Shown piece by piece: positions 1-8,138 of a stretch of DNA of 64,000 bases. The stretch's first letter is position 1; each line of letters opens with the position of its first letter. The translations under genes were made by a program, and so were the position numbers. The notes under the pieces are model-generated. The model made no database searches, was not told the origin of the DNA, and saw only the letters and a list, made by a program, of their open reading frames with translations. The DNA is from Deltaproteobacteria bacterium (lineage in GTDB: Bacteria > Myxococcota_A > UBA9160 > SZUA-336): positions 2,670 through 66,669 of the forward strand of contig JAJDAJ010000054.1 in NCBI GenBank assembly GCA_029261925.1, read 5' to 3'.

Positions 1-810
1 CGAGCGGGGGTCGTCGGTCGGGACGCGCCGCACGTCGACATCCCGGCGCGAGACCGTGGCGCGCACGATCTCCGCCAGCTCGTCGACCGTGTGGTTCGGC
101 CCGCCGGCGTTGTACACGCCGCCGTCGATGCGCTCCGCGGGCAGCTCCACCAGCCGCGCGTACAGGTCCGCCATGTCGTCGATGTGGATGTTGGGGCGCA
201 TCTGCGCGCCCCCGAAGACCTGGATCTGGCCGGTCGACACGGCGTGGTTGGTCAGGATGTTCACCACGACGTCGAGCCTCTGGCGTGGCGCGTAGCCGCA
301 GACCGTCGCCGGCCGCACGATCACCGAGGCGAGCCCGGGATGCCGCAGATCGTGCAGGACCTCCTCGCAGAGCGCCTTGTACTTCGAGTAATCGGTGAGG
401 GGCTCGAGCGAGTCCTCCTCGCTGACGTCGGAATGCGGCTTGACGCCGTAGACGCTCGAGGACGAGGCGTAGATGAAGCGCCCTGCCCCCGTATCCACGG
501 CGGCCCGGACCAGCGGCTCGAACGCGTCGTAGTTGATCGACCGACCCAGGTCCGGGTCGAGCTCGAAGCTCGGGTCGTTGGAGATGCAGGCCAGGTGGAT
601 CACGCAGCTGCAGTCCGCGACCGCCTTGGTCACCAGCCCGGTGTCGCGCAGGTCCCCGCGGATCTGCTCGAGCCGCGGGTGCGGCTGGAGCACGTCGTCG
701 CCAAAGAGATACAGGTCCAGCACGCGGACGCGGTGTCCCAGCGCGAGCAGCCGCGGCACCAGCACGCTGCCCACGTACCCGGCACCGCCGGTGACGAGAA
801 TGGTCTCCAA
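1..810 (-). CDS. NAD-dependent epimerase/dehydratase (extended SDR), 3' end truncated by window edge
   Basis: Manual translation from TTG at 810 (GGAGG RBS): LETILVTGGAGYVGS (GxxGxxG), HLACISND, SSSSVYG, YSKYK (YxxxK). Not in the ORF track because it runs off the window. Confidence 0.9.
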   Translation of the reverse strand, partial: METILVTGGAGYVGSVLVPRLLALGHRVRVLDLYLFGDDVLQPHPRLEQIRGDLRDTGLVTKAVADCSCVIHLACISNDPSFELDPDLGRSINYDAFEPLVRAAVDTGAGRFIYASSSSVYGVKPHSDVSEEDSLEPLTDYSKYKALCEEVLHDLRHPGLASVIVRPATVCGYAPRQRLDVVVNILTNHAVSTGQIQVFGGAQMRPNIHIDDMADLYARLVELPAERIDGGVYNAGGPNHTVDELAEIVRATVSRRDVDVRRVPTDDPRS

Positions 811-940
811 GGGGCCTCCCTGACGCAGCGGGCCGCGCGGCGCACGGCCGACGTCCCGGCATCTGCGGTGGCTTATCGACGTGCGCCGGCACCATCTTTC
901 GGCGTCGAGGCCCCGGGATGGGGCGGCGTTCTGCTCGCGC

Positions 941-1765
941 CTAGAAGCTCACCCCGAGCGGCCGGCGCAGGACCAGCCCCAGCAGCAGCGTGAGGCCCAC
1001 GAAGCCCCAGGTCGCGCCGGAGAGGCCCGCCCACTCCCCGCCGCGCCGCGGATACGCCAGGTGCACCACGCGCACCGGCCCGTTGGCGGGCAGCGGCACG
1101 GCGGCGGGCGATCCCAGGATCGCCGGCGCGCTCGCGCGCCGGGCGGCGGGCGAGACCGAGGCCGGCCCGGAGCCCACGCGAGCGCGCAGCGGCACCGCCG
1201 TACCCCCGAGATCGAGCGACAGCGCCCAGTCTCCCTCGCGGCGGGCACCGACCCGCCACACCAGCTCGCGGGTGCTCTCGATGCGCAGCGGCGGTGTCTC
1301 CTGCGCCAGGCCCTCGGGCAGCGCCAGGCGCGCGGACAGCTCGGTCAGGGGCCCCTCGCGATCGACGCGCGCGGTCAGCAGCGCGGACTCGCCGGGCGCC
1401 AGCGGGCGGTGACCGAAGCGCGTCTCGACCTGCACCAGCATGGCGGCGAACGGCAGCAGCATCAGGGCGAGCGGGGCGAGCGACAGGCGCAGGTACGTCA
1501 GGTTGTGCCGCAGCAGCCGCCCCTGGGCCCGCAGCATCACCAGCGGATCGTCGCGGAAGATCCGCAGCTCCAGGACACAGGCCTTCATGCGGTCCTTGGC
1601 CCGCTCGATGCGCTGCGGGTCGGTGGTCAGGCGATAGGCACCCAGGGCCAGCAGCGCGCCCGGGAGCGCCAGCCACGCCAGCTGCAGCACCAGCGGGGCT
1701 GTGGCCACCGGCCACAGCCACACGTCGAAGAGCGCGTTGAGCGCGCGGTTGAACAGCGGCCACAC
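941..1765 (-). CDS. Membrane protein, DUF106/EMC3/TMCO1-like (Oxa1 superfamily) architecture with inserted soluble domain
   Basis: TM1, charged helical hairpin (TDPQRIERAKDRMK...RAQGRLL), SLAPLALMLLP TM2, beta-rich insert, C-terminal TM3 ending LRRPLGVSF. Family call by eye. Confidence 0.6.
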   Translation of the reverse strand: MWPLFNRALNALFDVWLWPVATAPLVLQLAWLALPGALLALGAYRLTTDPQRIERAKDRMKACVLELRIFRDDPLVMLRAQGRLLRHNLTYLRLSLAPLALMLLPFAAMLVQVETRFGHRPLAPGESALLTARVDREGPLTELSARLALPEGLAQETPPLRIESTRELVWRVGARREGDWALSLDLGGTAVPLRARVGSGPASVSPAARRASAPAILGSPAAVPLPANGPVRVVHLAYPRRGGEWAGLSGATWGFVGLTLLLGLVLRRPLGVSF

Positions 1766-1769
1766 GGCG

Positions 1770-6068: not shown

Positions 6069-6685
6069 GGCTGCTCCTTGCGGTTGCGGTACAGCTCGCC
6101 GTCGATCGCCCGCGCCATCGGCGCGACCTCTCCGGTCAGGCCCAGGAAGCGCTGCACGTGCCCGGCCACCCGCTCGGGCGCCAGCACGGCCTCGTCGTAG
6201 CGCACGTCGAGCCAGCGCACGCCCGGCCGGCGCTGCATCAGGCGCCGCACGTCATCGAGGTGCCGCACGTACAGCTCCCGCGCACGGGCGTCGTCGACCG
6301 GGTTGGGCTCGCCCAGGCGCTCGAGCATCCGGTTCTGCGAGGTGATCACCTCGTCGAGGTCACGCAGCATGAACACGATGCGGTAGCCGTTGCCGGGCGG
6401 CAGCCAGCGCAGCAGCGGGGACACGACCTTGACCGCCTGGCCGCGCGCCTGGCGCACCCAGCGGCGGTCGGGATCGCGCTCCAGTCGCTTGACGCGCTCG
6501 AGCTCGAAGTAGCCATGAGGATTGTCCCGGTCGGCCTCACGCTCGCCGTCGCTGAGCAGCGGCACGCCGCCGGCGGCGAGCATGCGCATCATCATCGACG
6601 TCCCCGAGCGGGGCAGTCCAGAGACGACCACCACGTCGGGCCCCCAGCGTAGTCGGTACCAGATGTTCGCGAGCGTATGAGACAC
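6065..6685 (-). CDS. PAPS-dependent sulfotransferase family protein
   Basis: 5'-PSB loop VSGLPRSGTS, N-P-x-G-Y-F-E, MLRDLDEVITSQ (3'-PB motif); 4-nt overlap with the next gene. Confidence 0.85.
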   Translation of the reverse strand: MSHTLANIWYRLRWGPDVVVVSGLPRSGTSMMMRMLAAGGVPLLSDGEREADRDNPHGYFELERVKRLERDPDRRWVRQARGQAVKVVSPLLRWLPPGNGYRIVFMLRDLDEVITSQNRMLERLGEPNPVDDARARELYVRHLDDVRRLMQRRPGVRWLDVRYDEAVLAPERVAGHVQRFLGLTGEVAPMARAIDGELYRNRKEQP

Positions 6686-6800
6686 GGATTTTCAGGGCTC
6701 AGCGGGCCGCAGGATCGGGCCGCAGGCTCCCTATCGTCCGCCGGGTTCCCGAACTGCTGCCCCGCTACAGGCCGGAGCCGGGTCGCCGATCTGAACGGGC

Positions 6801-8138
6801 ATGTGCGTCCGAAACACCGTCGCCTGGCTGTCGCTCGTGGGCGCGTGCGCGCTCGGCTGTGTGGTCGAGTCGCGGCCCGCGCCCGACCGCGATCTGGTCG
6901 TGCTGGTCGTGCTCGACACGATCCGCGCGGATCACCTGTCGCTCTGCGGGCACTCGCGGCCCACGTCGCCGGCGCTCGAGGCGATTGCAGCAGCGGGCGC
7001 GAGCGTGCGCTGCGACGCACAGGCGCCCGGCACCTGGACCCTGCCCAGCCACGCCAGCTACTTCACCGGCCTGCCCGTCGTGGAGCACGGCGCGCACTTC
7101 GGCCCGGGCGGCAGGCGCATGCTCTGGGACGTGACGGTCTTCCCGCTCGACGCGCGCGCACCGACGCTTGCCGAGCAGATGGCGGCTGCGGGCTACCGCA
7201 CCGCGGCCGTCTCGGCCAACCCGGTCGTGTCGTCCGAGACCGGCCTGACGCGGGGGTTCGAGATCGTGCGCCGGGCGGGGAGCTTCGGCGAGCTGTACGG
7301 CGAGCGCCTGGAACGCGCGCTGGAGCAGACCCTCGACCAGGTCGCGGAGGACGAGCCGCTGTTCCTGTTCCTCAACGTCGCCGACGCCCACCATCCGTGG
7401 CCCGCGATCCCGCAGGGTCTCGACTGGGTGCCGGAGCGTGCGGGCATGACCTACGGCATCAAGCAGCCCGACAGCCCCTGGCGCCGCTACATGGCCGGCG
7501 AGATGGCCGAGGAGGAGGCCGCGGAGCTGCGCGAGCACAGCACGGACCTGTACGACTGGGGCGTGCGCCGCGCGGACCGCACGCTGGCCGGAGCGCTGGA
7601 GGTGCTGCGCAGGCGTGGCCGCCTCGCGGGCGACCACCGCATCGTGATCACCTCGGACCACGGCGAGTTCCTCGGCGAGCACGGCCTCACGGGCCACTGC
7701 TGCTACCCCTACGAGGCGGTCACGCGCGTGCCCCTGCTGGTGCTGGACAGCAGCGGATCCCCGCAGCTGCCGGGCCCGGTCAGCGCACTGCACGCCTTCC
7801 ACCTGGCGCGGGACGGCGCCCTGCCCCCGGTCCCCGCGCCCCTGGTCTCGGTCGGGTTCCCGAGCCCGAACATGATCGAGCACGTGGGCCGGCTGGGCCA
7901 CGAGCTGGCGGTCGCGAGCTGGTCGGGCACGCGCAAGTCGCTGTGGATCGAGGATCGGCGGCTCGCGTTCGACCTCGAGACGGATCCGGACGAGCTGAGA
8001 CCCCTGCCCGCCGGCGGCCCCGATGCGCTGCTCGACTCGCTCGCGGCGGCGGCACGCGCGTCGCACACCCGCGGCGCGGCAGCCCGTGCCGACGCCGCCG
8101 CGGTGGAGCACCTGGAGGCACTCGGCTACGTGGAGTGA
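6801..8138 (+). CDS. Sulfatase-like hydrolase/transferase (Thr nucleophile), probable exported/lipoprotein
   Basis: VLDTIRAD, WTLPSHASYFTG, SDHGE, C-terminal LEALGYVE; hydrophobic N-terminus with ALGC. Confidence 0.85.
   Translation: MCVRNTVAWLSLVGACALGCVVESRPAPDRDLVVLVVLDTIRADHLSLCGHSRPTSPALEAIAAAGASVRCDAQAPGTWTLPSHASYFTGLPVVEHGAHFGPGGRRMLWDVTVFPLDARAPTLAEQMAAAGYRTAAVSANPVVSSETGLTRGFEIVRRAGSFGELYGERLERALEQTLDQVAEDEPLFLFLNVADAHHPWPAIPQGLDWVPERAGMTYGIKQPDSPWRRYMAGEMAEEEAAELREHSTDLYDWGVRRADRTLAGALEVLRRRGRLAGDHRIVITSDHGEFLGEHGLTGHCCYPYEAVTRVPLLVLDSSGSPQLPGPVSALHAFHLARDGALPPVPAPLVSVGFPSPNMIEHVGRLGHELAVASWSGTRKSLWIEDRRLAFDLETDPDELRPLPAGGPDALLDSLAAAARASHTRGAAARADAAAVEHLEALGYVE

Follow-up and report, generated by a model that had tools for sequence, protein, structure and literature searches.

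Nucleotide pyrophosphatases/phosphodiesterases (NPPs) such as the Xanthomonas enzyme (PDB 2gsn) and the ENPP family belong to the alkaline phosphatase (AP) superfamily and combine a PF01663 core with a two-metal site and a Thr/Ser nucleophile. The membrane proteins MJ0480/Ylp1 (PDB 5c8j), TMCO1/EMC3 and YidC share three transmembrane (TM) helices and a coiled coil, and rhizobial NodP/NodQ/NodH constitute a dedicated sulfation module with a sulfotransferase of the type that uses 3'-phosphoadenosine 5'-phosphosulfate (PAPS). In EptA/MCR and LtaS, the PF00884 fold carries a Thr in place of the formylglycine Cys. Moreover, a study on Halobacterium salinarum reports, on the basis of deletions, that N-glycan sulfation needs sulfatase-like AP-superfamily proteins (PMC11980604). 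Here, we analyze a stretch of 64,000 nucleotides from a Deltaproteobacteria bacterium (GenBank assembly GCA_029261925.1, contig JAJDAJ010000054.1, positions 2,670 to 66,669), hereafter the window, which encodes proteins of the NPP, DUF106/Oxa1, sulfotransferase and sulfatase families. The conserved entity within it is a four-gene unit that encodes two NPP-type enzymes (AP1 and AP2), a small ribbon-helix-helix-like protein (RHH) and a membrane protein of the DUF106/Oxa1 superfamily (MEM). We read this unit, with a probability of roughly 0.55, as a widespread module of four proteins that spans the inner membrane, is accompanied here by a PAPS-dependent sulfotransferase (ST), and acts on phospho- or sulfo-esters on either side of the membrane. 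The module is without a described counterpart. Neither the gene combination, nor COG3379, nor bacterial DUF106/Oxa1 relatives led to a pathway matching it in the literature, in agreement with an earlier sequence-only reading of the window that had recognized no named pathway.

Open reading frames (ORFs) in the window were called by coordinates, their coding character was checked by the GC content at third codon positions (GC3), and the proteins were scanned with Pfam and NCBIfam profiles. The window has a GC content of 73% and genuine genes are distinguished by GC3 values of 0.87-0.95, a coding signature that is found in the frames of ST, AP1, AP2, RHH, MEM and the divergent sulfatase-family gene SULF (0.89-0.94). 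Five of these genes follow each other on the minus strand. ST (6065-6685) encodes a 206-aa PAPS-type sulfotransferase (PF13469, 52 bits over a cut-off of 27) and overlaps by 4 nt with AP1 (3927-6068), a 713-aa NPP-type enzyme predicted to face the cytoplasm. AP1 in turn overlaps by 1 nt with AP2 (1987-3927), its 646-aa paralogue of 37-40% identity, which is predicted to be exported; both match PF01663, with 119 and 112 bits, respectively (cut-off 23). A gap of 22 nt separates AP2 from RHH (1770-1964), a 64-aa protein that ends with GLGYIE and is the predicted partner of AP1, and 4 nt separate RHH from MEM (941-1765), a 274-aa protein with three TM helices and a putative cytoplasmic coiled coil. 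The tight coupling described in the sequence-only reading, including both overlaps and both gaps, was thus reproduced exactly. None of the seven proteins of that reading, which also counted SULF and a sugar epimerase, reached its family cut-off in NCBIfam.

The significance of this arrangement was evaluated in the best 80 loci among the AP1 relatives, which were collected in a scan that took one genome per species; window proteins were compared with the loci by tblastn, and flanking ORFs were grouped by all-against-all clustering. AP1 has more than 7900 scoring homologues, many at 60-87% identity, and the scan confirmed relatives in at least 589 species genomes. AP1, AP2, RHH and MEM are found on one strand in 63 of the 80 loci, ordered AP1-AP2-RHH-MEM in 53 cases and AP2-RHH-MEM-AP1 in 10. 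Most of the remaining 17 loci are cut by contig edges or contain Ns, and the genuine exceptions are L003, L045, L016 and probably L012. The loci span more than 10 phyla and include Myxococcota, Gammaproteobacteria, Bacteroidota, Acidobacteriota (with Aminicenantes), Planctomycetota, Gemmatimonadota, Dadabacteria, Spirochaetia, Calditrichota and Eiseniibacteriota, among others. As the four genes share a strand in so many loci and phyla, their co-arrangement is far beyond chance. The neighborhood search proposed in the sequence-only reading therefore bears out its notion of a syntenic, membrane-associated unit, with a narrower membership: of its seven genes, AP1, AP2, RHH and MEM form the core, ST is optional (26/80 loci) and the epimerase drops out (0/80). 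Two records of metagenome-assembled genomes in the set, titled Rheinheimera tuosuensis (L004) and Klebsiella pneumoniae (L008), carry the module with an AP1 identity of 62-64%, and these titles may mislabel the origin of the contigs.

The same data refute the view that the locus merely juxtaposes unrelated neighbors, with RHH and MEM as spurious ORFs. Such a view could draw on the Pfam scan, in which neither RHH nor MEM matched any family above threshold. It is incompatible with the 63 four-gene loci, with 1173 representative clusters retrieved by a full hidden Markov model (HMM) search with RHH at E <= 0.001 (370 at E <= 1e-10), with a confident structural model of MEM (see below) and with GC3 values of 0.91-0.93, so that we attach next to no weight to it.

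AP1 and AP2 appear to be intact enzymes as judged by their residues. In a conservation subset of 42/79 AP1 and 38/65 AP2 locus sequences plus the copies of the window (43 and 39 sequences), D85, D443, H447, D501, H502 and H654 are 100% conserved, whereas the nucleophile position is slightly more variable (T119 in 93% of AP1, Ser64 in 82% of AP2). We take these Asp, His and Thr/Ser positions to be the metal ligands and the nucleophile of NPPs on the basis of known motifs, and both paralogues would accordingly keep a complete two-metal site together with its Thr/Ser nucleophile. NPPs were also the only solved relatives detected by sequence, with E values from 3e-5 to 8e-6 along some 80 residues (the first 80 or so for the match at 3e-5). 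AP1 and AP2 exceed NPPs in length by about 300 residues and seem to be paired as paralogues across the membrane, and AP1 differs further by a membrane hairpin, a predicted cytoplasmic orientation and a dedicated small-protein partner.

The hairpin comprises two helices in residues 8-57 of AP1 (5898-6047, minus strand), connected by a Y-x-G-P-G-A-G turn and followed by an Arg-rich stretch. Y26, G28, P29, G30, A31 and G32 of the turn are invariant in 73 sequences, and ten Arg follow the second helix in AP1 of the window. Informative in this regard are proteins that unite PF13469 and PF01663 in one chain, i.e. ST-AP1 fusions, which account for 18 of the 120 best AP1 homologues. Three of these sequences show the order ST domain, hydrophobic helix, A-Y-[IV]-G-P-G-A-G, second hydrophobic helix, Arg-rich stretch and AP domain; because the two-helix hairpin lies between them, the ST and AP domains are placed on the same side of the membrane. 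Since ST needs cytoplasmic PAPS, since two helices separate ST from AP in the fusions, and since the Arg stretch follows helix 2, the catalytic domain of AP1 should be cytoplasmic and tethered by a hairpin with a short, invariant periplasmic turn, and ST itself would be cytoplasmic as well. The N-termini of 65 AP2 sequences, inspected by eye, include Sec signals, Cys-ended lipoprotein signals and twin-arginine signals (RRxF[IL]K), which suggests that AP2 is exported via the Sec or Tat route or as a lipoprotein.

RHH is the smallest component. An alignment of the window copy with 64 homologues has a mean column identity of 60%, with G25, Y26, S28, E38, G59, L60, G61 and Y62 invariant. The tail, residues 53-64 (1773-1808, minus strand), ends L-R-G-L-G-Y-I-E in the window; 63 of the 64 homologues likewise end one residue past G-L-G-Y-[IL] and the last one stops at GLGYL. 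Among the best 150 matches of the HMM search, most proteins are 61-69 aa long. A word-index search for fused forms of RHH or MEM found none, which is weak evidence, and the HMM search gave rare long forms of RHH. One of these (P0254, 817 aa) comprises a full AP1, a linker and RHH in a single protein, and another (P0122, 113 aa) is a tandem RHH with the tail on the second copy only and a PF01402 match of 28.6 bits (cut-off 20.5). In P0130, an AP2 fragment is joined to RHH via a junction that looks out-of-frame or frameshift-like, and a DUF2157-RHH form (P0154) is possibly a read-through of the gene call.

The pairing of AP1 and RHH was modeled with AP1 residues 70-713 (73-row alignment) and a single RHH chain (62 rows), in three runs and with three controls. 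AP1 and RHH scored 0.62, 0.69 and 0.73, as opposed to 0.00, 0.07 and 0.00 in the controls; among reference pairs, 58 of 80 solved complexes attain the score mark, as do 2 of 110 mismatched ones, a calibration that is rough here because it was applied to alignments of our own. At least 90% of contacts are common to the runs, with a partner pLDDT of at least 74. Of the complex modeling suggested in the sequence-only reading for the products at large, the analysis covered the AP1-RHH pair (median 0.69 vs 0.07 for the best control). On the side of RHH, the model engages residues 22, 24-28, 31-32, 35, 42-43, 47-48 and 50 as well as the entire tail (53-64). Contacts on the side of AP1 include T133, F145, P228, G232, Q234, G235, P357, T395, W396 and H447, along with G610-Y612, W631, W650, D653, C655 and 694-696. 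Positions conserved at 90% or more make up 24 of the 44 interface residues compared to 189 of 644 overall, and W396, Q234, N399 and Y612 of the interface are conserved in AP1 and not in AP2. Thus, RHH is predicted to dock on AP1 via its invariant G-Y-S-S loop and to lay the G-L-G-Y-I-x tail along the most conserved groove; in the model, this groove contains H447, one of the metal ligands, as well as D653, an invariant residue next to another ligand, H654. The C-terminal region of AP1 touches the body of RHH in the model, and this contact fits the AP1-RHH fusion in P0254. Taken together, the architecture of the module and the AP1-RHH pairing are reasonably supported.

A predicted complex between an enzyme and a ribbon-helix-helix protein may also be read in terms of gene regulation. 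RHH would then be a CopG-type repressor of the operon that AP1, as a trigger enzyme, sequesters at the membrane with the tail as a pseudo-substrate, and binding of the real substrate in the AP1 site would release RHH, or the reverse. Consistent with this, 21 of the 65 RHH members show weak matches to PF01402 (RHH_1; best E 4e-4, none in the window copy), neighbors in the Atlas are automatically named CopG regulators, the tail is predicted to occupy the catalytic groove of AP1, and the tandem RHH in P0122 is in keeping with an RHH fold that forms dimers. The 115 nt between the divergent ST and SULF genes (6686-6800) contain a 10-nt direct repeat, GGGCCGCAGG, which occurs twice at 6704-6727 with a spacing of 4 nt. 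The repeat GGGCCGCAGG could be an operator, or arise by chance in DNA of 73% GC. No inverted repeat or palindrome was found in these 115 nt, though, and a mean column identity of 60% across many phyla would be exceptional in a repressor, given that its operators should differ from phylum to phylum. A scan of positions 600-7000 returned no promoter-like site, and a terminator scan of the same range returned two weak terminator-like sites, both intragenic. On balance, we consider a regulatory role of RHH unlikely but worth keeping in mind, in particular as it is compatible with a module acting on esters at both membrane faces rather than exclusive of it.

The fourth core component, MEM, links the module to a family of membrane insertases. 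A profile of 62 MEM sequences aligns residues 9-121 with residues 10-126 of MJ0480 (PDB 5c8j_I) at E 1.6e-10, 23 of the 62 members show weak matches to PF01956 (EMC3/TMCO1; best E 1.5e-5, none in the window copy), and a lead from the Atlas likewise points towards DUF106/Oxa1. In the AlphaFold 2 (AF2) model (pLDDT 94.6), residues 25-47, 50-69, 74-117 and 250-266 form helices, and residues 127-236 (1058-1387, minus strand) fold into a beta-sandwich between the second and third TM helices. With the whole model as the query, Foldseek matched only this beta-sandwich (filamin, S-layer and Ig-like domains, best E 2e-3). An independent fold search (VIA) ranked 7tut_8 first with Z 10.5 at an rmsd of 4.5 A over 135 aligned residues (next row 8.2) and gave Z 7.5 for Bacillus YidC (3wo7_A); with helical models, Z values below about 13 can be common, and these fold scores would not settle the assignment by themselves. 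The entry 7tut is the multipass translocon, with TMCO1 as its chain 8. The profile match identifies MEM as a bacterial homologue of MJ0480, an archaeal insertase of the DUF106/Oxa1 type, and profile and fold matches together justify the label "insertase-like" given to it before. The model suggests a cytoplasmic coiled coil and a periplasmic Ig-like domain. What distinguishes MEM from MJ0480, TMCO1, EMC3 and YidC is its bacterial origin, the 110-residue Ig-like insertion predicted in the periplasm and its constant association with enzymes in an operon. To our knowledge, no other bacterial relative of the DUF106-EMC3-TMCO1 insertases is wired into an enzyme operon, and none turned up in the one literature search in which bacterial relatives of DUF106 came up. 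YidC-type insertases classically handle hairpins whose external loops are short, and by this analogy MEM may insert or hold the hairpin of AP1.

ST was addressed separately. The sequence-only reading had proposed a machine that moves sulfate or phospho-substituents onto a surface glycan, lipid or protein; none of the computed results points to one of these targets. Across 24 orthologues, neither the motif S22-G-L-P-R-x-G-T-S30 nor R108 varies; residue by residue, this invariance covers P25, R26, G28, T29, S30, R108 and S116, which we take to be the 5'-phosphosulfate loop (P-x-x-G-T-S/T; P25-S30) and the Arg/Ser motif for the 3'-phosphate (R108/S116). The AF2 model of ST (pLDDT 86.8) finds 35 PDB matches at E <= 0.001, of which the listed ones are nearly all sulfotransferases, with Teg14, Teg12, StaL, the CurM ST domain and TPST2 as the best (E 4e-6 to 1e-4, and to 4e-4 with the tyrosylprotein sulfotransferases as a group; TM-score about 0.5). 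Compared to Teg12, Teg14, StaL and the tyrosylprotein sulfotransferases, its best structural matches, ST shows 16-19% identity and, with 206 residues, is devoid of most elaborations for acceptor binding. An ST gene is found within 10 kb of the module in 26 of the 80 loci, on the same strand in 14 and on the opposite strand in 12. Full flanks that lack an ST within 10 kb were available for about 23 loci, and the genomes of 10 of these were searched for an ST elsewhere; three contain a relative, whereas the window query found none in the other seven, some of them complete chromosomes. As ST adjoins only 26 of 80 loci and seven of these 10 genomes yielded none, sulfation cannot be the core chemistry of the module. 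ST is an optional add-on, but one that is physically linked to the module, as the fusions with AP1 illustrate.

The genes for PAPS supply and removal of its product 3'-phosphoadenosine 5'-phosphate (PAP) are present in the window as had been noted: Pfam identifies a CysQ-like protein (PF00459, inositol-monophosphatase/CysQ-like), CysD (PF01507) and CysN-CysC (PF00009 and PF01583) on the plus strand at 27071-30932 (starts approximate). They are located about 20 kb from the module, and CysD/CysNC adjoin the module in 1 of 80 loci (L081), so they were rejected as members; the PAPS genes supply the donor for ST, yet are unlinked to the module. In the L081 case, from an Acidobacteria metagenome-assembled genome, two ST-like genes and a CysD/CysN-CysC pair are found directly upstream of AP1 (1888-9800). 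The resemblance to NodP/NodQ/NodH is therefore limited to a PAPS-type sulfotransferase that is served here by CysD, CysN-CysC and CysQ of the genome. In contrast to the Nod modules, 20 kb separate the PAPS genes from the module here and ST is optional, and the Nod systems are without partners of the AP-superfamily, RHH or insertase type.

The nature of the ST folds invites the alternative that Tyr62 of RHH is itself the substrate, with ST sulfating it from PAPS, AP1 removing the group or passing it on, and RHH serving as carrier or switch. An invariant Tyr one residue from a fixed C-terminus would suit such a cycle, as would the activity of Teg12, Teg14, StaL and TPST1/2 on phenol groups of peptides and the fusion of ST to AP1, the predicted holder of the tail. 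Several observations argue otherwise. The tail is equally invariant in lineages where ST was not found, the fold matches are moderate (TM-score about 0.5) and include carbohydrate and small-molecule sulfotransferases, and the residues around Tyr62 are basic; known Tyr-sulfation sites are unlike such a basic-flanked Tyr. We regard a cycle of Tyr modification as rather doubtful. Equally doubtful is a relay in which RHH is a new kind of carrier or gate: its Tyr tail would be loaded with sulfate by ST and PAPS or with a phospho-group, presented in the AP1 site and passed to an acceptor in the membrane, with the DUF106 homologue coupling these steps to the periplasmic paralogue, so that sulfuryl or phosphoryl groups are relayed across the membrane.

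Apart from ST, sulfatase-family proteins are the only extra neighbor family that recurs in more than nine of the 80 loci. In the window, SULF (6801-8138, plus strand) is divergent from ST and encodes a 445-aa protein of the Thr type (PF00884, 71 bits) that starts with a signal peptide, may contain a lipobox and terminates in L-E-A-L-G-Y-V-E. The motif position reads T-L-P-S-H-A-S-Y-F-T-G, and the formylglycine motif C/S-x-P-x-R is absent. NCBIfam models of EptA/MCR and STM4013 match weakly, all far under their cut-offs; SULF resembles EptA/MCR and LtaS in its PF00884 fold with a Thr for the formylglycine Cys and differs from them by lacking the N-terminal membrane domain. Sulfatase-family genes are located within 10 kb of the module in 35 of the 80 loci, some with tetratricopeptide (TPR) repeats or an N-terminal membrane part. 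The residue pattern matched 10 of the 56 neighboring ORFs, nine of which are of the T...H type, and left 46 unmatched. A Thr-type sulfatase-like lipoprotein is thus a frequent accessory neighbor of the module.

The similarity between the tails of SULF and RHH deserves a comment. Among the 56 neighboring sulfatase-family ORFs, 14 end L-[RK]-[AS]-L-G-Y-[IV]-x, and in a further 17 the motif is found within the chain, often ahead of TPR repeats. In the genome of the window, 14,264 ORFs pass the GC3 filter, five of which end LGY[IVLF] plus at most three residues. Three ORFs have an ending of the L-x-x-L-G-Y-[IV]-E type, namely RHH, SULF and a sulfatase-family gene on contig C77 (82313-83866; L082 6314-7867). 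The latter is of the Thr type (T-A-P-A-H; PF00884, 148 bits), has a lipobox-like signal and ends E-A-L-R-A-L-G-Y-I-E. We know of no described role for a C-terminal LGY tail as in SULF. A sorting tag that is read by the module was considered and rejected: of the relatives with tailed sulfatase-family genes, as judged from 30 loci read among more than 240 matches, 10 gave no MEM match and 5 did, and RHH has no export signal. Moreover, the tail differs from sortase- or exosortase-type signals in that there is no TM segment and the protein ends one residue past Y-[IV]. Because tails occur where MEM was not found, the LGY tail is a general trait of a subfamily of sulfatase-like enzymes and not a tag for the module. 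RHH may then supply to AP1 in trans a tail that sulfatase-family enzymes carry in cis. A corresponding role of AP2, in which it would bind LGY-tailed sulfatases in the periplasm much as AP1 is predicted to bind RHH, is not supported, given that the four AP1-specific interface residues are not conserved in AP2.

The module is flanked in the window by genes of other context. A short-chain dehydrogenase/reductase (SDR) epimerase (PF01370, 128 bits) starts at position 810 on the minus strand, 130 nt past MEM, and extends past the edge of the window. With relatives beside the module in 0 of 80 loci by tblastn, it was rejected as a member and is a lineage-specific neighbor. Beyond the epimerase, outside of the window on the same contig and strand (L001 1-2500; window coordinate = L001 - 2669), reading of the translations alone identified a frame resembling DegT aminotransferases, another SDR frame of the dehydratase/epimerase kind and, where the contig ends, a cytidylyltransferase-like fragment. 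These frames look like an amino-sugar nucleotide pathway that is found beside the module only in this lineage; DegT was likewise rejected as a member (1/80 loci). On the other side, just past SULF, a coproporphyrinogen III oxidase gene (8429-9712, plus strand; PF01218, 391 bits) is unrelated to the module.

In other lineages, examples of families that recur in at most nine loci are a third NPP-like gene (431 aa) and a pair of HEAT and HD genes, both in Aminicenantes, and an outer-membrane barrel in Acidobacteriaceae. The third NPP-like gene is exemplified by L019 (9677-10969), where it has a full-length PF01663 match and is found directly upstream of AP1, the position of ST elsewhere; similar genes are present in L026, L031, L039, L044, L047, L053, L054, L056, L057 and L071. 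In loci of this Aminicenantes type, HEAT-repeat and HD-domain genes are located further upstream.

The neighborhood also bears on a possible housekeeping function in phosphorus or lipid metabolism, in which both AP enzymes would be phosphodiesterases that strip phosphate from head groups of phospholipids or nucleotides at the two faces, e.g. under phosphate limitation, and a sulfated replacement would come from ST. Lipid phosphodiesterases are known within the NPP family, AP1 and AP2 are both sited at the membrane by prediction, and one weak match of the RHH profile overlaps a PHO4 fragment. Near the module, however, neither Pho regulon nor lipid-synthesis genes recur, and the RHH partner and the insertase homologue would be left unexplained, which makes this function improbable.

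We therefore favor a module that handles esters at both faces of the inner membrane, for which the following sequence of events is conceivable. At the inner face, AP1, gated or completed by the RHH tail, would make or cleave a phosphodiester or sulfo-ester on a membrane-associated molecule, which would be sulfated from PAPS where ST is present. MEM would insert and hold the AP1 hairpin, couple both faces and possibly pass a polar head group across the membrane. In the periplasm, AP2 would process the molecule, often together with Thr-type sulfatase-like lipoproteins.

A number of points weigh against this proposal. The overall topology is deduced from the positive-inside rule, signal peptides and fusions, and P0130, taken at face value, would put RHH outside of the cell. 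The AP1-RHH complex is a model with RHH as one chain although RHH folds are dimeric. Contacts of MEM with the AP1 hairpin and with AP2, as well as a role in flipping, are guesses. Regarding the chemistry, the window query found no ST in seven of 10 genomes whose module lacks an adjacent one, and the context gives no hint on the substrate, every flanking family other than sulfatases and ST being found in at most 9 of 80 loci. Finally, the module is patchy among relatives of the host: MEM was found in 11 of 41 related genomes and in 5 of 24 of the same family.

Kept in more than 10 phyla and present in at least 589 species genomes, the four-gene unit speaks for a common process in the envelope, as yet unnamed. 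Within this process, two AP-superfamily paralogues that appear catalytically intact by their residues would be paired on opposite faces of the inner membrane, and a small partner protein, RHH, is predicted to reach into the active site of one of them, AP1. The many fusions with ST provide a handle on the chemistry of the module. Should its substrate turn out to be a lipid or lipid-linked glycan, the module would provide Acidobacteriota, Planctomycetota, Myxococcota and marine Gammaproteobacteria with a new way to modify their envelope.

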